Shown here: positions 35,849-46,740 of the stretch, one piece after another | Layout: each line of letters opens with the position of its first letter | Numbering within the stretch: position 1 is the stretch's first letter | From: Candidatus Brockarchaeota archaeon | GTDB taxonomy: Archaea; Thermoproteota; EX4484-205; JAAOZP01 | Length of the DNA: 64,000 bases | Direction of reading: 5' to 3' | NCBI GenBank assembly: GCA_017601245.1 | Contig: JAFNJB010000053.1 | Location: 16,501-80,500 of the forward strand | Notes under the pieces: generated by a model | The model's input: only the letters and a program-made list of their open reading frames with translations | What the model was told of the DNA's origin: nothing | Database searches by the model: none | Program-made: the position numbers and the translations under genes

Positions 35849-36079
35849 TTGGCCTTGCTCAAAGCATATTTGCTAATAGTCTGCGAAGTGGGCTCAGAAA
35901 GGGACATTGAAGAAGAAATCCGAAAGGTTGAGAACGTTACTAATGTGGATGTCGTCTATGGCGAGTATGACATAATAGTAACGGTAGAGGTCAACGATAT
36001 CAAACAGCTCGACAGTGTTGTAACACAGATTAGGCGTATAAAGGGTGTTCTAAGAACTATGACACTCCTATGCGATTAG
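35849..36079 (+). CDS. stand-alone Lrp/AsnC C-terminal (RAM) domain protein
   Basis: 76 aa. AYLLIVCEVGSE...VENVTNVDVVYGEYDIIVTVEV is the RAM-domain beta-alpha-beta-beta-alpha-beta pattern. No HTH. Confidence 0.55.
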   Translation: MALLKAYLLIVCEVGSERDIEEEIRKVENVTNVDVVYGEYDIIVTVEVNDIKQLDSVVTQIRRIKGVLRTMTLLCD

Positions 36080-37812: not shown

Positions 37813-38058
37813 CTAGGCCTTTGCCTGTTGGACTGAGAGAACTACGCGCGTATCGGTTGTAGCAATAGACTCTACGTTCCTTATCTTCAAGACTGTTTTC
37901 ATAAGCTTTTCAACATCTAGTACGTCAACCCTTATCAACAGGTCTATGTCCCCAGTCAATTCTATAACTTCCCTAACTTCCTCGATATTCAGCAGCTTCT
38001 GCATTACCTTCTCCCTGTTGAACCCTTTTGCTATTTTTGCTGTTACGAACGCTTGCAA
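37813..38058 (-). CDS. stand-alone Lrp/AsnC RAM-domain protein (paralog 1)
   Basis: 81 aa. ELTGDIDLLIRVDVLDVEKL...IRNVESIATTDTRVVL. Confidence 0.6.
   Translation of the reverse strand: MQAFVTAKIAKGFNREKVMQKLLNIEEVREVIELTGDIDLLIRVDVLDVEKLMKTVLKIRNVESIATTDTRVVLSVQQAKA
37933..37962. repeat. 30-nt exact direct repeat (copy 1 of 2; copy 2 at 38220..38249) inside the two adjacent RAM-domain genes
   Basis: TATCAACAGGTCTATGTCCCCAGTCAATTC occurs at both positions and encodes ELTGDIDLLI on the minus strand of each gene. Confidence 0.85.
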
Positions 38059-38105: not shown

Positions 38106-38339
38106 TCACTTGGAAACACGTGATAGTACTATTCGCGTATCTGTCGATTCAACACCCTTGATCTCAAGTATTTCGTCAACAATCCTCCTTAAATCTGCTT
38201 CAGAAGAAGCAGTGACCTCTATCAACAGGTCTATGTCCCCAGTCAATTCGTAAACTCTCTTAACTCCCCTTACCTGAAGAACCTTTTCAATATTCCCCTG
38301 GAAGCTGCTTGAAACCCTTACCAGTATTATCGCCTCCAA
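38106..38339 (-). CDS. stand-alone Lrp/AsnC RAM-domain protein (paralog 2)
   Basis: 77 aa. ELTGDIDLLIEVTASSEADL...IKGVESTDTRIVL. It shares a 30-nt identical DNA block with the neighbouring paralog. Confidence 0.6.
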   Translation of the reverse strand: MEAIILVRVSSSFQGNIEKVLQVRGVKRVYELTGDIDLLIEVTASSEADLRRIVDEILEIKGVESTDTRIVLSRVSK

Positions 38340-40832: not shown

Positions 40833-42191
40833 ATGATAAGAAATTTGCTTAAAATATTATCCATTGCTGCAGTGCTTTTAATCGGAATCGTCATAAGACA
40901 ATTTTTAGAATCCCTATGGCTGGTTTTAACGGGTTCGGATTCAAATGGTCTTTCAAGCCTAGTCTCACTCATTACTATGATTTTTTCTTCAATACTGCTT
41001 CTGCCTATTAAGCAAGAGAATAAAGCGGGGATTATAGGGTTGTTCAAAGAAGTCTTAATCTTCCTATTCATCTGGATTGTAACATCATTATTTGCAGCCT
41101 TCTTACATCAACCTAAGCATGCTTCAATAGGCTTCATAGCTGCGTCTTTATACTTATTCTCTAGGCTAATCATTAATCGAAGCATCGGGCATAGGATAAT
41201 GCTTGAGCTTAAAGAATACTCCAATATACCTAGGGGCAGTACTATACTCATGTCTGTTGCACCTGTCCCAAGGGTCTTCATTACACAGGGTTTTGGGTTG
41301 AGAATTATTTTAGAAATCCTAAAGGGTAATGCTGGGATTGCTAATGTAATCAATGAAGAGGTCTTTCTAAAATCGTTCAGGGAAATTAAAGTTGTTGAGC
41401 TTCAGGGAACTCTAGCATCCTTTGTAAAGGCAGTGGCGGAGAATTGGAACCGGGAAGTAGCGATATTCTGCGAAGCAAAGCTTAAGGGAAGTCTTTTCAA
41501 AATCAGAGTTAAACTCGCTTCTGACAGTACTCGGGCTATAGAAAGTATACTTAATGGATTTTCAAAACTAGATGGTATGGAAGATTTAGAATGGGCCATT
41601 GAAAAATGGTCTCTCTTAAAACCGTGTGTTAAGCCGATTAGACTAGTTGACAAAAGTGTTTTTCTACAGCCGGAAAATGTTCCCGAGCGTCTTTTTATTG
41701 TGGGAGAGTTAGAAGAAGTTGAAAAGGTTGCATTACAGGTTTGCTTTTCCCAGTTGAGAAGCAATTCGAGAATCGTCATAATCAATGGCGAGGAGGACTC
41801 TTCTTTTGAGAATAGGGTTGGGAAAATGCTTGAGGCTAAGGGTTTCAAACCCTATGGCAATGAGATTAAAACGTTCAGAACTAGTAGGGGAGCAGAGGTA
41901 ATACTTATGAGGAAAGCTGATTTGAAAGAAAGGATTGTCAACAAGTTTTTGAGAAAGCCTATTGTTGCACTATGGTTGAGAAACTTTTCAGAAGACATTC
42001 AACTGAAAGCTCCGTTGAGGGTTTTAACGTGCAACATGCCTGAGGCTAATCCGGCTTTAGAAGCGGACGGCATATTGCTCTTAAGCCCGAGCGAGAAGAT
42101 CTTGGAGTGTTTCATACCTGAGAGATACGGGCTTTCGCTTCGAGGTAGGATGGTAATGGTCTCAGCTAAGGGGGTGAGTATATTAGCATGA
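40833..42191 (+). CDS. membrane protein: 4 N-terminal TM helices plus a ~330-aa cytoplasmic domain of unknown function
   Basis: 452 aa. TM helices at roughly residues 5-25, 41-60, 67-92 and 97-119. No recognisable catalytic motif. A 4-nt overlap with the next gene follows. Confidence 0.5.
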   Translation: MIRNLLKILSIAAVLLIGIVIRQFLESLWLVLTGSDSNGLSSLVSLITMIFSSILLLPIKQENKAGIIGLFKEVLIFLFIWIVTSLFAAFLHQPKHASIGFIAASLYLFSRLIINRSIGHRIMLELKEYSNIPRGSTILMSVAPVPRVFITQGFGLRIILEILKGNAGIANVINEEVFLKSFREIKVVELQGTLASFVKAVAENWNREVAIFCEAKLKGSLFKIRVKLASDSTRAIESILNGFSKLDGMEDLEWAIEKWSLLKPCVKPIRLVDKSVFLQPENVPERLFIVGELEEVEKVALQVCFSQLRSNSRIVIINGEEDSSFENRVGKMLEAKGFKPYGNEIKTFRTSRGAEVILMRKADLKERIVNKFLRKPIVALWLRNFSEDIQLKAPLRVLTCNMPEANPALEADGILLLSPSEKILECFIPERYGLSLRGRMVMVSAKGVSILA

Positions 42192-43423
42192 AGAGCATTC
42201 GACCAAGAGTGAATGAAGCGTTCGAACTCGTGGGCAAAGTGGGAATAGCCGGATGGAATTTCAGGAGGGTCCTCGTATTCCTTCTTTCAAAGCTTCTGAA
42301 GGATTACAAGATGATACTCCTAGACCTGAGTGATGAATTCAGTTGTATTACGAGAATAAACGGGGCAAAGTATTACAACGTCTTCGAACATAGCATAAAC
42401 CCTATCAAACCGTCTTCTCAAGAGAGAGTTGAACAATATGTAGAGTCGCTAGTGGAGATAATTGATTACTGTCTTGGAGTTTTTAACATGAAGAGCATTA
42501 TTACGAAAGCTTTTATTAACAATATTTCATCGTCTGAAACTACAATACCTGAAATAATATCCAAACTGGATTTCGAGAGTCCTGAAGGAGGATTATCGAT
42601 CTACTCTCCCTTGGAACCATTTACATTCGGCACTTTAAGAAGAGTCTTCGGGAGGCGAGAAGAATTGGACTTTAACGAAGTGTTAGATACTGGTATAGTT
42701 TTCGACCTGTCGGGCCTTCCAACAGCTTCTTCAAAAGCACTGGCAGTCTTAATAGTATTGAACAAGCTCTCGCATATGGTGCCCAAACACCCCACAGTCA
42801 TAGTTATTACCTACCCCAGTATTGTTTGGCCCAAGAATAGGAGATGCGATGCAGCCAAGCTACATGTTGAACAAGTTCTCATAGACGATTTGGAGAGGAA
42901 AGGCTTCATAATGGTTTTTGCTGAAAAGATGTTTTCAGAACTGTCTGATAAGATCGTAAAAGAGCTTGATGCCATAGTTTTCTCACCTCCCTCTGAGGCT
43001 CTAGACCCTTGGAATCCCTGGGGTTTATACACTAGGCTGGAGAATGAAGTCTTAGATTATCCAGCAGTGGTTTTAAACAGGAGGGGCGAGGTCAAACCCC
43101 TCATGTTCCCCTCAAGCATCTTGTTGAAACCCTTGAGTAAGGAGGAGCGTGAAAAGCTCAAGCCTAATCTAAGAGTCTTCAAGGAATATGATAGGTTGAA
43201 AGAAATTCTCAAGGAAGACTATGAGCTTGGGCTTAGAATAATAGACATGGTTAAGGAGTTAGGTGGCAGGGCTGTTTTAAACAGGCTGGTCGAAGAAATA
43301 AGGTCGAAAATAGGGGCCGGCGGGCTTAGGGCGCTTGCCACATTGTTGAGGCACAGTTATTTGAAACAAGTTCAAGAAGGGGGTGAGCAATACCTCGTCC
43401 TTAATGGGGGTGACGGGGGATGA
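42188..43423 (+). CDS. hypothetical protein; possible P-loop-NTPase-like fold with a degenerate Walker A (HerA/FtsK- or secretion-ATPase-like)
   Basis: 411 aa. LVGKVGIAGWNFRRVLVFLLSKLL occupies a Walker-A-like position but lacks GK[ST]. It is followed by KMILLDLSDEF (acidic box), and later IVFDLSGLP...PTVIVITYP in a Walker-B-like position without D/E. No intact GxxxxGK[ST] occurs anywhere. The fold assignment is a hypothesis. Confidence 0.45.
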   Translation: MKSIRPRVNEAFELVGKVGIAGWNFRRVLVFLLSKLLKDYKMILLDLSDEFSCITRINGAKYYNVFEHSINPIKPSSQERVEQYVESLVEIIDYCLGVFNMKSIITKAFINNISSSETTIPEIISKLDFESPEGGLSIYSPLEPFTFGTLRRVFGRREELDFNEVLDTGIVFDLSGLPTASSKALAVLIVLNKLSHMVPKHPTVIVITYPSIVWPKNRRCDAAKLHVEQVLIDDLERKGFIMVFAEKMFSELSDKIVKELDAIVFSPPSEALDPWNPWGLYTRLENEVLDYPAVVLNRRGEVKPLMFPSSILLKPLSKEEREKLKPNLRVFKEYDRLKEILKEDYELGLRIIDMVKELGGRAVLNRLVEEIRSKIGAGGLRALATLLRHSYLKQVQEGGEQYLVLNGGDGG

Positions 43424-44280
43424 GGAGGATTCTCACCGGGATAAAATCGTTAGACGAGCTTACTGGAGGATTTCCCACTGGGGTTTCAAACCTGGTTTAC
43501 GGCAGTCCTGCAACGGGGAAGACAAGTCTTTCAATGACTCTCGTAGCGGAGGCTCTTAGAAATGCGAAGGATAGAGATGTTGTCATAGCTGTCTTAACTG
43601 AAGGCTGGGACATGGACCGTTTAAAAACAATATGTGCCAAGAGGAATGTTAAACAAGATGCTTTAAACAGGGTTAAGACGTATGAAGCCAATAGCTTCGG
43701 AGAGCAACATAAGGTGATAACTGAAGTAATGCCGAGAGATATTGAAGAGAACGATTGGGTCCCAACGCTGATAATCGTAGACTCTCTCGTACCACACTAC
43801 CATGCTCAATTGCTCAACACGCCTCTTCAACACTTGGCTTCTAAAGCCAGAGAATTTCAGGGAAGACTGTCTCTAGAAATAAACACTCTGGTGAAAATCT
43901 CTTCTGGATACGATTCACTATTATTAGTAAACAGCTGGCGGCGTAGTAGTGCTGGCCGAAGCTTTCAGGAGAAATGGAGGAAGGACGTCATAAACGGTAT
44001 TAATAGTAACAATGTTCTGATAGATCCTGAAGCGGGCTTTGGCTCTAGAGAATTTGATGTCATAGGTGGGCAGCATCTAGTCTACATGAGCAAGACCGTA
44101 TTAAGAATGGTTTCGACAAGCCTTGGTGAGAACATTAAGGCTGTTATCTTAGAGAAGGCTCTTTCAAGGCCGACGATGTTCTGTTGCTTGGTGAAAATAT
44201 CTGAAGCAGGTATTGAAACTCATGAGGGTAAGCCCGCTCCTGTTAGTGAAGTGATAAGAAGAGAGGTTATTGAAGACTAA
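43420..44280 (+). CDS. RecA-superfamily ATPase, KaiC/RadB/aRadC (RadA paralog)-like
   Basis: GIKSLDELTGGFPTGVSNLVYGSPATGKTS (the RadB/KaiC-type N-terminus with Walker A) and Walker B LIIVDSL. 286 aa. 4-nt overlap upstream and 1-nt overlap downstream. Confidence 0.8.
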   Translation: MRRILTGIKSLDELTGGFPTGVSNLVYGSPATGKTSLSMTLVAEALRNAKDRDVVIAVLTEGWDMDRLKTICAKRNVKQDALNRVKTYEANSFGEQHKVITEVMPRDIEENDWVPTLIIVDSLVPHYHAQLLNTPLQHLASKAREFQGRLSLEINTLVKISSGYDSLLLVNSWRRSSAGRSFQEKWRKDVINGINSNNVLIDPEAGFGSREFDVIGGQHLVYMSKTVLRMVSTSLGENIKAVILEKALSRPTMFCCLVKISEAGIETHEGKPAPVSEVIRREVIED

Positions 44281-45377
44281 TGAAAGAAAATAATTATATA
44301 CCAGTAAAACATCGTTCATTCATGCCAAAAAGGAAGATAAGAGTCGCCTTCATAGGAATAGGAAATAGTGCCTCCACCACTATACAGGGTCTGTTCTACT
44401 ATTCCTCAGGCCGTGGGGACAGTGGCTTATGGCATCCGATAGTTGGGGGATATGGTGTTGAAGATATTGAGGTGGTTGCGGCCTTAGACGTAGACAGTAG
44501 GAAGGTCGGTAAGGACTTGTCGGAAGCTCTCTTCTCAGAGCCGAATATCGTGGAAAAACGTTGCGAAATACCGAGGACTGGAGTAATCGTTGAGAAAGGA
44601 TTGTTGGAAGACGAGCTTAACCCGTATCTCGCATCTCAACTTAAAGTATTGAAGCAGGATAAGGAAGGTGTAGTTGAATACTTGAAGAAGAGCAATGTGG
44701 ATATTGTTGTTAACACGATATCCAGTGGCTTAGACAAGTCTTCGATTGCTTATGCTAATGCAGCTTGTGAAGCAGGTGCGAGCTTCGTGAATGCCACTCC
44801 TACAAGCATTGCAACAAACCCGGATATTGTTGAAGCCTTTAAGAAAAAGGGTATTGTTGTCGTTGGCGATGACTTGATGAGTCAGCTTGGGGGTACTGCT
44901 CTCCACAGGGGGCTCGTACACTTTCTTAAATCCCGGGGCATTAAGCCAATTAGAAGTTACCAGCTTGACGTGGGTGGGGGTCTAGAAACTTTAAACACTA
45001 TGTACGAAGACCTTAGAGACTTTAAGAAGCAAGTCAAGACTTCTTCTATAGCGGAAGAAATCGACGAGGGTTGGGAAGTCGTATCCGGAACAACGGATTA
45101 CGTGGATTTCCTTGGTAACAACAGGGTTACTTACTTGCAGTTCACTGCAACGGGCTTCATGGGTAGTAGTATAATCATTAACGTTAACCTGAGGTCTAAC
45201 GATGGTATGAATGCCGGTAATGTAATAATAGACGTTGTCAGAGCGGTGATGAAGGCTAGAGAAGACGGTTTAAGCGGAAATGTCAGTGATATCTCAAACT
45301 ACGGCTTTAAGAAGACGCTTGAGAAAAAGCGTATCCATGACGCAACCATGGTCTTCGAATCGAAATACTGCAAGTAG
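44280..45377 (+). CDS. myo-inositol-1-phosphate synthase
   Basis: Rossmann region IRVAFIGIGNSASTTIQG, conserved VVGDDLMSQLGGT (GDDxKSGQT-like), and length 365 aa, typical of archaeal MIPS. The start ATG overlaps the previous TAA (taATG). Confidence 0.8.
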   Translation: MKENNYIPVKHRSFMPKRKIRVAFIGIGNSASTTIQGLFYYSSGRGDSGLWHPIVGGYGVEDIEVVAALDVDSRKVGKDLSEALFSEPNIVEKRCEIPRTGVIVEKGLLEDELNPYLASQLKVLKQDKEGVVEYLKKSNVDIVVNTISSGLDKSSIAYANAACEAGASFVNATPTSIATNPDIVEAFKKKGIVVVGDDLMSQLGGTALHRGLVHFLKSRGIKPIRSYQLDVGGGLETLNTMYEDLRDFKKQVKTSSIAEEIDEGWEVVSGTTDYVDFLGNNRVTYLQFTATGFMGSSIIINVNLRSNDGMNAGNVIIDVVRAVMKAREDGLSGNVSDISNYGFKKTLEKKRIHDATMVFESKYCK

Positions 45378-46233: not shown

Positions 46234-46740
46234 ATGGGAGAAGATTGGAGTCAGTTAGATCTGGAAAGGCTTAGAATGATAGAGATTGCGGCAAATATTC
46301 ATAGGGTTAAGATAATGATGGAGCTTTCAAAGAAGGGGGATGGTACTGTCACCTCGCTGGCGAAGAGCCTCGGTTACTCCAGGCAATTAGTAAAGCACCA
46401 CTTGGAAACTCTCAATAGGGGTGGGCTTGTCTCCAAGAGGAGGATTGGAAACATGGAGTTTTACAGCATTACTGAAGACGGGAGGACAATACTCTCCGAG
46501 ATACTTAAAATCCATCTTGAAGTTGGGAGGGGGGAGGTCGAAGTATGTAAGCCAGTTGTCAAAGAGAAGAGAACAATAAATGGAGCTGGGTATCTACCAA
46601 TAATCGCGGGAATAACCCCAGTCTTAATATCTCTCATAAAGGGGGTTTTTGAGAATCAACCCCTATGGATAATTGGAGGGCTCATCCTGGGTGTTTTACT
46701 ATATTTGATTTTTTCAAAGCTTATTAAGGTTCTAACGTAG
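46234..46740 (+). CDS. ArsR-like winged-helix regulator fused to C-terminal TM helices (membrane-tethered)
   Basis: wHTH region ([28 protein letters not shown]) followed by two hydrophobic helices ([15 protein letters not shown] and [17 protein letters not shown]). 168 aa. Confidence 0.55.

Follow-up and report, generated by a model that had tools for sequence, protein, structure and literature searches.

What becomes of an ATP-driven motor protein whose ATP site has been lost, and does it still have a task? Proteins of the HerA/VirB4/FtsK type are familiar as pumps that use ATP to move DNA or proteins. The first-pass annotation of the stretch of Candidatus Brockarchaeota DNA examined here (the window, 64,000 nucleotides in all) had noted a 411-aa protein with the order of P-loop motifs and without their catalytic residues. 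It had interpreted this protein as a degenerate ATPase acting as scaffold or regulator beside an intact, paralogous ATPase, and had named structure prediction, profile-profile comparison and a look at the orthologs as ways of checking the idea. The open reading frame is real (42188..43423, + strand), and the product most probably belongs to the HerA/VirB4 branch of the FtsK-HerA superfamily, as a member that has lost catalysis, and is probably the noncatalytic part of a three-protein module.

Fold and remote homology

The AF2 model of the protein, here termed pseudo-HerA, has a pLDDT of 84.8 and shows a P-loop/ASCE ATPase fold of the FtsK-HerA superfamily, as had been guessed from motif spacing. 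Its top matches are VirB4, DptH, HerA and TrwB, and the top Foldseek matches are all HerA (E about 4e-8). The predicted fold comprises a RecA-like ASCE core, a strand order of the HerA/VirB4 type and a helical insertion after strand 2.

Judged by sequence, membership of the HerA/VirB4 clade is a matter of remote homology below the curated thresholds. Pfam gives no match to the 411-aa protein at E<=1, and the curated models DUF87 (PF01935), AAA_10 and TIGR00929 are not reached, the last of these (VirB4) giving 20.9 bits against a cut-off of 643; PDB sequence searches return noise only, with the single sequence and the family profile alike. There is a weak NCBIfam match to VirB4_CagE (E 8.6e-5), and hhalign pairs the family with intact DUF87 ATPases at a probability of 97% (E 8e-11); these independent tests rule out chance as the source of the motif resemblance. 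In an exhaustive search by HMM through 1.84 billion representatives, remote relatives appear at E-values of 1e-6 to 4e-4, and the sole relatives that are not degenerate are intact DUF87 ATPases (P0039-P0041); a profile that includes these finds solved HerA structures (E 3.5e-12) and brings the columns of Walker B and sensor into register. The nearest of them, P0041 (locus L024), is encoded in an island of large unknown proteins; apart from a second HerA-like gene there, the locus offers no clue to function. The paralogy with the downstream ATPase that had been suggested is not detectable (hhalign probability 0.2%).

Lost and retained motifs

The string in which a P-loop had been looked for, LVGKVGIAGWNFRRVLVFLLSKLL, occupies aa 14-37 and contains the degenerate, shortened P-loop KVGIAGWNFR (aa 17-26; 42236..42265, +), which lacks the Lys and the Ser/Thr. 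Strand beta1 (KVGIA) is followed by just G-W-N ahead of helix alpha1; in the model the strand covers residues 17-21, the helix begins at 25 and the beta1-alpha1 loop is 3 residues long. MAFFT alignments place a 3-residue gap here against HIGIFGLSGFGKTT of the intact relatives. The Lys has been substituted, as first described, and the loop is in addition some 3 residues shorter by this alignment; hhalign pairs GIAGWNFR with GLSGFGKT with no gap, K and T being still missing. A mostly conserved basic residue, R/K26, stands at the N-terminus of helix alpha1 and could still bind an anion. A regular-expression search of the protein finds 0 instances each of [AG]xxxxGK[ST], GK[ST] and hhhh[DE][DE]. 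The absence of a canonical Walker A, recognised from the outset, extends to 30 of the 30 aligned family members, and in no ortholog, the distant Bathyarchaeia-type relatives included, is a GK[ST], an acidic pair in Walker B or a sensor Gln retained.

The acidic box ILLDLSDEF (aa 43-51; 42314..42340, +), placed by the first-pass annotation 10 aa beyond the first string, starts 5 aa after it. Its HerA-like character holds: this is the retained HerA/VirB4-type 'hhhhDxxGEY' motif of strand 2, aligned to VFDWHGEY / VLDWYGEY of the intact relatives, and its D46 and E50 are invariant across the family. Between core strands lies an all-alpha insertion (aa 68-168; 42389..42691, +; helices 78-168 in the model), which by density of invariant columns is the best-conserved part of pseudo-HerA and holds an invariant NP.KP and a DFE.PEGGLSIY.P.EPF loop; pLDDT is low at 130-136, inside the insertion. 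The FxxA motif docks onto RadA/Rad51 cores, and the invariant 'EPFTFG' loop was considered as a mimic of it and rejected as unsupported, since relatives of Bathyarchaeia type have the same RadB-like partner and yet do not conserve the motif.

The segments DLSGLP (aa 173-178) and VIVITYPS (aa 204-211) had both been assigned to the Walker B site. The former belongs instead to the HerA-type 'DLS' strand that follows the insert (VFDLSGLP, aa 171-178; 42698..42721, +), aligned to 'FDLSGMP' of the solved HerA 8wiv and to the equivalent strand of intact relatives; the latter does correspond to Walker B. In this degenerate Walker B, TVIVITYPS (aa 203-211; 42794..42820, +), aligned to VVVLEEARN / VIVMDEAQR / LVVLEEAHT, the acidic pair has given way to T-Y followed by invariant P210 and S211, so that TYPS stands where relatives have EEAR/DEAQ. 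The sensor strand IMVFAEK (aa 241-247; 42908..42928, +), aligned to IIITQ / VAATQ / MLVSQ, is degenerate as well, with an invariant E246-K247 in place of the T/S-Q conserved in HerA-type ATPases (Gln to Lys). The RecA-like core, helical insert and 'hhhhDxxGE' strand survive in pseudo-HerA, and the replacements of its lost motifs are themselves conserved.

The C-terminus forms a winged-helix-like domain (aa 333-405; 43184..43402, +) with H-S-H-H-S-S topology in the secondary structure of the model and a nearly invariant putative recognition helix, GLRALA.LLR..YLKQ. It aligns with the C-terminus of P0041, which itself has weak wHTH matches in Pfam. DNA binding by this domain is uncertain because a count from the sequence gives it no net positive charge and because Pfam scans of the isolated domain find no significant wHTH match, the best being HTH_34 at E 0.048 for the distant relative P0037.

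There are 33 intact full-length orthologs, and dN/dS is 0.085-0.10 (about 0.09), indicating strong purifying selection. The family combines an enzyme fold with the loss of the catalytic residues in all members and selection for the gene product, the marks of a pseudo-ATPase. Loss of hydrolysis, as predicted from these substitutions, is well supported, and all nucleotide binding has likely been lost too.

A conserved three-gene module

The pseudo-HerA gene is the middle member of a fixed, translationally coupled three-gene module. The stop of the upstream gene (40833..42191, +; 452 aa) overlaps its start, and the start of the downstream gene (43420..44280, +; 286 aa) overlaps its stop, in each case as ATGA. 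The upstream protein starts with four TM helices (aa 2-114), followed by a middle alpha/beta domain and, in a model of moderate confidence (pLDDT 69), a C-terminal RecA-like fold (about aa 281-452) without Walker A; this cytoplasmic domain would be the second Walker-less RecA-like fold in the module, a point beyond the first-pass annotation. The assignment is made at fold level, with no sequence signal. As possible sources of the domain, a degenerate HerA-like protein, a paralog of the RadB-like neighbour and a paralog of the upstream gene in locus L023 all gave hhalign probabilities <1%; that upstream gene bears a HerA motif.

The downstream protein is the intact RecA-type ATPase that had been reported, with a Walker A, GSPATGKT (nt 43501-43524, +), and a Walker B, LIIVD (nt 43768-43782, +), both invariant in 14 orthologs. 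It matches the RadB model TIGR02237 with E 1.6e-20 and 73.9 bits, below the equivalog cut-off of 172.4, and its best solved relative is RadB 2cvf (PDB, E 3e-12 over aa 5-135); on these scores it is a RadB-like member of the RecA superfamily and not a RadB equivalog. Its gene has a dN/dS of 0.055-0.073, and the family is a separate and narrow one, as restricted in distribution as that of pseudo-HerA.

The order 4-TM protein, pseudo-HerA, RadB-like ATPase, with the genes abutting, is found at 22 loci representing 16 GTDB species of Brockarchaeota type, and the triad occurs also in one Bathyarchaeia lineage, amid housekeeping genes. The loci of Bathyarchaeia type encode a degenerate HerA-like protein, a 44-47% identical RadB-like protein and a protein probably homologous to the membrane protein (hhalign E 2e-4, probability 45%). 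Each species genome searched has one triad locus (16 loci, 16 GTDB species), its chromosomal position among housekeeping genes is constant lineage-wide, its divergence tracks that of the neighbouring housekeeping genes, and the triad stays together where the surrounding neighbourhood changes. An ArsR-type HTH protein also stays near the triad. In one Brockarchaeota clade herA-nurA adjoins it, which in effect amounts to one evolutionary event. In related genomes a genuine HerA-NurA pair has genes of its own.

Comparison with known systems

The VirB4/TrwK ATPases of type IV secretion and the archaeal CedB/CedD of Ced DNA import differ from pseudo-HerA, which has neither Walker A, Walker B and sensor residues nor the VirB4 N-terminal domain, its core starting at residue 17; it ends in a winged-helix-like domain, is coupled instead to a RadB-like ATPase, and has no other T4SS or Ced components nearby. 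Compared with HerA proper (the HerA-NurA helicase; DUF87, PF01935) and the defence HerAs, it falls below any Pfam threshold and is without the N-terminal HAS barrel (beta1 is at residue 17) as well as the catalytic motifs; where HerA-NurA, Sir2-HerA and DUF4297-HerA have a NurA, Sir2 or nuclease partner, it is flanked by a membrane protein and a RadB-like ATPase.

Dead subunits beside live ones are familiar from EccC D2/D3, Elp4/5/6, the RAD51 paralogs (XRCC2) and the non-catalytic subunits of F1/V1. Here, however, the dead (HerA/VirB4) and live (RadB/RadA) subunits come from different branches with no detectable sequence relation, and two different dead folds, one of them membrane-anchored, accompany one live ATPase; moreover, nucleotide binding persists in most of those known cases, but the P-loop of pseudo-HerA is truncated. 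The likeness to the archaellum core ArlJ/ArlI/ArlH is one of analogy only, since ArlI is an active ATPase of the VirB11/PilT class and not of the HerA/VirB4 class; archaellin or pilin genes were not seen next to the triad, and no ArlJ homology was detected. In the literature on FtsK-HerA, RadB/KaiC-like ATPases, Brockarchaeota and HerA/VirB4 pseudo-ATPases we found no published description of the family or of the triad.

Proposed role

We regard pseudo-HerA as probably one subunit, without catalytic activity, of a complex of three proteins not described so far. That the three proteins form such a complex, anchored in the membrane, we infer from gene linkage only. Pseudo-HerA would serve in it as a non-hydrolysing ring or adaptor subunit, its helical insert and winged-helix domain perhaps holding a partner or nucleic acid; the 'scaffold or regulator' of the first-pass annotation is thereby kept as an inference, backed by strict gene linkage and purifying selection. 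The RadB-like protein, as presumably the sole subunit able to bind and hydrolyse ATP, would for that reason supply the energy or switch by which the complex is driven or regulated. For the process itself the likeliest candidate is DNA handling at the membrane (repair, recombination or DNA transfer), a guess and the weakest step of the proposal, made because all recognisable folds of the triad stem from DNA-transaction families. The idea leans on family ancestry and on the herA-nurA adjacency in the one Brockarchaeota clade.

Other readings bear chiefly on what the dead domain does. It may still bind nucleotide non-canonically or contribute in trans to the partner's site, as an allosteric nucleotide-sensing subunit in the manner of EccC D2/D3 or F1 alpha and not a nucleotide-blind scaffold. 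We think this improbable: the 3-residue loop of the model and the 3-residue deletion seen by MAFFT remove the phosphate-binding cradle, no Lys or Ser/Thr is there for phosphate and Mg2+, and Walker B has no acidic residue. Scarcely more attractive, and if anything a shade less so, is the suggestion that pseudo-HerA is mainly a winged-helix transcription regulator, no structural subunit of a membrane complex, whose ATPase-like domain senses a ligand or partner and so controls the operon or other genes. The topology of the C-terminus, its nearly invariant putative recognition helix and the nearby ArsR-type protein speak for such a role, as does the fusion of wHTH domains to HerA/FtsK domains elsewhere (PMC10853773). 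Yet conservation peaks in the helical insert of the ATPase-like core and not in the wHTH, which has neither a significant family match nor net positive charge and whose putative recognition helix only partly keeps its basic residues in the Bathyarchaeia relatives; and to stand in the middle, flanked by genes for a membrane protein and an ATPase and overlapping both at stop and start, is what one typically sees in a gene for a complex subunit.

We consider it very unlikely that the triad is a defence or mobile-element module, whether domesticated or still active, on the HerA-effector plan (cf. Sir2-HerA, DUF4297-HerA, DptFGH), or a remnant of conjugation or DNA transfer. The best structural matches do include defence HerAs and DptH, P0041 has its island setting, and the RadB-like protein shows a weak match to PADLOC mad8 (E 7.7e-6). 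However, effector domains (nuclease, Sir2 or other) were not detected, PADLOC and PHROGs give no significant match for pseudo-HerA or the membrane protein, the window holds no tRNA, dN/dS is low, and the triad is a single locus per species genome searched, in the same housekeeping position, diverging with its neighbours. A defence island or integrated element at the triad was considered and rejected on synteny, copy number and the absent effector domains and tRNA.

There is also a larger suggestion, a tentative one that we would not call probable: the triad could be a machine, so far unrecognised, that is anchored in the membrane and inherited vertically in Brockarchaeota and some Bathyarchaeia. 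One live RadB-like ATPase would in it be combined with two dead ASCE-ATPase folds of different kinds, a RecA-like domain tethered to the membrane and a winged-helix-bearing ring of HerA/VirB4-like type. It could be a membrane-tethered recombination/repair hub or a DNA-uptake hub where a RecA-family ATPase, and not a HerA/VirB4-type ring, does the work.

A pump fold that lost its P-loop, its Walker B and its sensor has here been kept under strong selection throughout a lineage, in firm linkage with a membrane protein and a RadB-like ATPase, and this branch shows the HerA/VirB4 fold reused as a non-motor component. The triad proteins are 'hypothetical' in every source that names them; they make up a defined three-protein module, from uncultured hot-spring archaea, that is open to expression and testing. 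If it is true that the complex handles DNA at the membrane, this would be a new arrangement in archaeal recombination or DNA-exchange systems; otherwise the finding is a useful annotation, in that metabolic or functional reconstructions should leave this pseudo-ATPase out when they count ATPases, helicases or secretion motors.

Fold and catalytic motifs of pseudo-HerA

Pseudo-HerA, a 411-aa protein (42188-43423, + strand), falls short of curated family thresholds: it has no match in Pfam and only a weak, sub-threshold NCBIfam match to VirB4_CagE (E 8.6e-5; aa 29-207 paired with model positions 454-640). Among 5.8 billion proteins, a word-indexed search found 33 homologs, about 406-412 aa long and at least 50% identical, all from Thermoproteota/Brockarchaeota MAGs and termed "hypothetical" in every source that names them. 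The AlphaFold2 model, computed from 30 of these 33 homologs, is confident (pLDDT 84.8, pTM 0.80), and its top Foldseek matches in the PDB are HerA structures (E about 4e-8). The predicted fold places the protein in the HerA/VirB4/TrwB branch of the FtsK-HerA superfamily, so that the P-loop NTPase fold proposed from motif spacing in the first-pass annotation was right at the superfamily level.

An exhaustive family-profile HMM search of 1.84 billion cluster representatives returned only nine proteins: fragments of the pseudo-HerA family, two degenerate full-length relatives (P0037 and P0038) and three intact ATPases (P0039, P0040 and P0041). The intact proteins match Pfam DUF87, the HerA central domain, have GxGK[TS], EEAR/DEAQ and [TS]Q, and align to the pseudo-HerA family with an hhalign probability of 97% (E 8e-11); a profile with them added matches the solved HerAs (E 3.5e-12) and brings the Walker B and sensor columns into line.

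As the first-pass annotation had stated, pseudo-HerA has no canonical Walker A; none of [AG]xxxxGK[ST], GK[ST] or hhhh[DE][DE] occurs anywhere in its 411 residues, and Walker A is likewise missing from 30 of 30 family members. In two MAFFT alignments of the family with its intact relatives, strand beta1 reads KVGIA against HIGIF, the P-loop is shortened to G-W-N with a 3-residue gap against GLSGFGKT, Walker B reads VIVITYPS against VVLEEARN, VMDEAQR or VLEEAHT, and the sensor strand reads MVFAEK against IIITQ or LVSQ. The AlphaFold2 model matches the short P-loop (strand 17-21, helix from 25), while hhalign favours an ungapped pairing of GIAGWNFR with GLSGFGKT, which places Phe and Arg at the Lys and Thr positions; aligned either way, the protein lacks both the phosphate-binding Lys and the Mg-binding Ser/Thr. 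Walker A, Walker B and sensor, the marks of an active member, are all absent across the whole family, and the replacement residues are invariant or nearly so (G19, G22, F25, P210, S211, W214, E246, K247). What is kept includes the strand-2 "hhhhDxxGE" motif, here ILLDLSDEF with D46 and E50 invariant, as well as the "NP" motif and the "DLS" strand. The strings quoted in the first-pass annotation are all present (aa 14-37, 43-51, 173-178 and 204-211), and its overall reading of a degenerate ATPase holds with corrections: ILLDLSDEF follows the N-terminal string after 5 residues rather than 10, and DLSGLP, which had been taken for Walker B, is the retained "DLS" strand, the Walker B strand lying at VIVITYPS. 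The gene is under strong purifying selection and shows no decay (dN/dS 0.085-0.10 against three orthologs, approximate values with dS near saturation).

The core begins at residue 17, leaving no room for the HAS barrel or the VirB4 N-terminal domain. Pseudo-HerA groups by fold with VirB4, HerA, TrwB and DptH but is without the N-terminal domains of HerA and VirB4. Its most conserved part is a helical insertion (aa about 68-168) with an invariant loop, DFE.PEGGLSIY.P.EPF, where model confidence is low. The C-terminus (aa 333-405) takes a winged-helix topology in the model; its putative recognition helix is nearly invariant, and the domain aligns to the C-terminus of P0041, whose own wHTH Pfam matches are weak. 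Because this domain alone has no significant family match in Pfam, "winged-helix-like" is a statement of topology. Among intact proteins, P0041 is the nearest relative to share this C-terminal winged helix; it has 650 aa (L024 6001-7953, +), with two TM helices and an N-terminal domain, and it adjoins a second HerA-like ATPase of 400 aa (L024 4268-5470, +). Several large proteins without a Pfam match are also encoded there, which makes the region a possible secretion or transfer island of uncharacterised type.

The triad and its conservation

The pseudo-HerA gene is the middle one of a triad joined by ATGA stop/start overlaps (42188-42191 and 43420-43423). Upstream lies the gene for a 452-aa protein (40833-42191) whose N-terminus forms four TM helices and whose cytoplasmic domains are alpha/beta (pLDDT of the model 69, or about 85 for the cytoplasmic part); it contains no Walker A and has no detectable sequence-level kinship to HerA-like or RadB-like proteins. 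Downstream, the intact RecA-like ATPase of the first-pass annotation is indeed found: a 286-aa protein (43420-44280) with GSPATGKT and LIIVD, closest to RadB (TIGR02237, E 1.6e-20, below the equivalog cut-off; PDB 2cvf, E 3e-12). Across 14 orthologs both of its Walker motifs and many further residues do not vary, and dN/dS is 0.055-0.073. Of the three ATPase folds in the operon, therefore, only one is competent; the other two are Walker-less and differ from each other.

When one genome per GTDB species was scanned, the pseudo-HerA gene turned up in 16 species, several titled Candidatus Brockarchaeota, and the triad genes abut in the same order in all 22 loci examined. In the clade that includes the window they are flanked by a family-2 glycosyltransferase, AMMECR1 and myo-inositol-1-phosphate synthase, in the other by a divergent ArsR-type regulator, herA-nurA and a DHH protein; despite these differing flanks the triad is identical in makeup, and its divergence parallels that of adjacent housekeeping genes. 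P0037 and P0038 are found in the same arrangement, each followed by a RadB-like protein that matches that of the window along its entire length at 44-47% identity. The RadB-like family is equally narrow (25 clusters) and has an outgroup of three members, one named Candidatus Bathyarchaeia. The outgroup loci also hold the triad, set among ThrRS, eIF-2B and AlaRS genes. Its upstream protein (about 431 aa) is hydrophobic at the N-terminus and collinear with the Brockarchaeota membrane protein in hhalign (E 2e-4, probability 45%); a 419-aa degenerate HerA-like protein and a 288-aa RadB-like protein complete the set. Inheritance of the triad is shown to be vertical, single-copy and of housekeeping type, and the linkage of pseudo-HerA to the membrane protein and the intact ATPase is obligate, with probable translational coupling. 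Every degenerate member has the shortened P-loop and a Pro following the Walker B strand, which points to a single inactivation ahead of the Brockarchaeota/Bathyarchaeia split.

Several neighbouring genes deserve mention. The myo-inositol-1-phosphate synthase gene (44280-45377, +), which comes after the triad in just one Brockarchaeota clade, overlaps the RadB-like stop by 1 nt (TAATG). In the Bathyarchaeia-type loci L026-L029, about 4 kb separates the triad from an upstream CDP-alcohol phosphatidyltransferase gene. These neighbours could be coincidental or could reflect some loose connection with the synthesis of inositol lipids or solutes. In both Brockarchaeota clades, whose other flanks differ, an ArsR/HTH_5-type regulator of 168-176 aa (window 46234-46740, +, with a hydrophobic C-terminal tail; L001 3742-4272, -) lies some 0.4-3 kb from the triad. 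At the loci of one Brockarchaeota clade (L001 863-3548, -, and L014-L021), a canonical herA (DUF87, intact Walker A), nurA and a DHH-family gene precede the triad in divergent orientation, so genomes of that clade own a genuine HerA besides pseudo-HerA. On the short contig L023, a partial gene upstream of P0037 (3-803, +) carries the HerA-type motifs IILDPHGEY, LNPF and VVMLIEDADE; on this motif-level likeness (hhalign E 0.013, low probability), that lineage may possess a second HerA-like paralog whose Walker B is acidic. The window also has three small, closely spaced ORFs of 76-81 aa (35849-36079, +; 37813-38058, -; 38106-38339, -); the latter two correspond in position to AsnC_trans_reg (stand-alone RAM domain) genes in the syntenic L003 and L005, and a third gene of this type in L005 matches the first in position.

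Possible role and related systems

We infer that the three proteins would assemble at the membrane, with pseudo-HerA as a non-hydrolysing ring or adaptor that may make its conserved helical insert and its winged-helix domain available to nucleic acid or a partner, and the RadB-like protein as presumably the one subunit that uses energy or acts as a switch. A role related to DNA, suggested by fold ancestry and by the herA-nurA adjacency in one clade, is plausible but weakly indicated. The main rival to the adaptor reading is that pseudo-HerA keeps residual anion or nucleotide binding by means of R/K26, which is mostly conserved, and the dipole of the helix, together with a regulator role for its winged helix. 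A defence or mobile origin of the triad is unlikely: its synteny is stable, and no effector domain was found in the triad, no PADLOC or PHROGs signal for pseudo-HerA or the 452-aa protein, and no tRNA within the window.

As an adaptor, pseudo-HerA would functionally resemble the non-catalytic ASCE subunits of EccC D2/D3, Elp456, RAD51 paralogs and F1 alpha, but in the triad the dead and live partners stem from different branches, and two dead folds are paired with one live ATPase. In composition only, the combination of membrane protein, ring-ATPase fold and small RecA-like ATPase is also like that of ArlJ/ArlI/ArlH and of CedA with CedB/CedD (PMC11868833). No description of the pseudo-HerA family or of the triad was found in the literature. 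Pseudo-HerA is a narrowly distributed, inactivated form of a well-known ATPase in an undescribed three-gene module, and the two together offer a clean case of a pseudoenzyme and a testable predicted complex, the function proposed being drawn from sequence, model and linkage.
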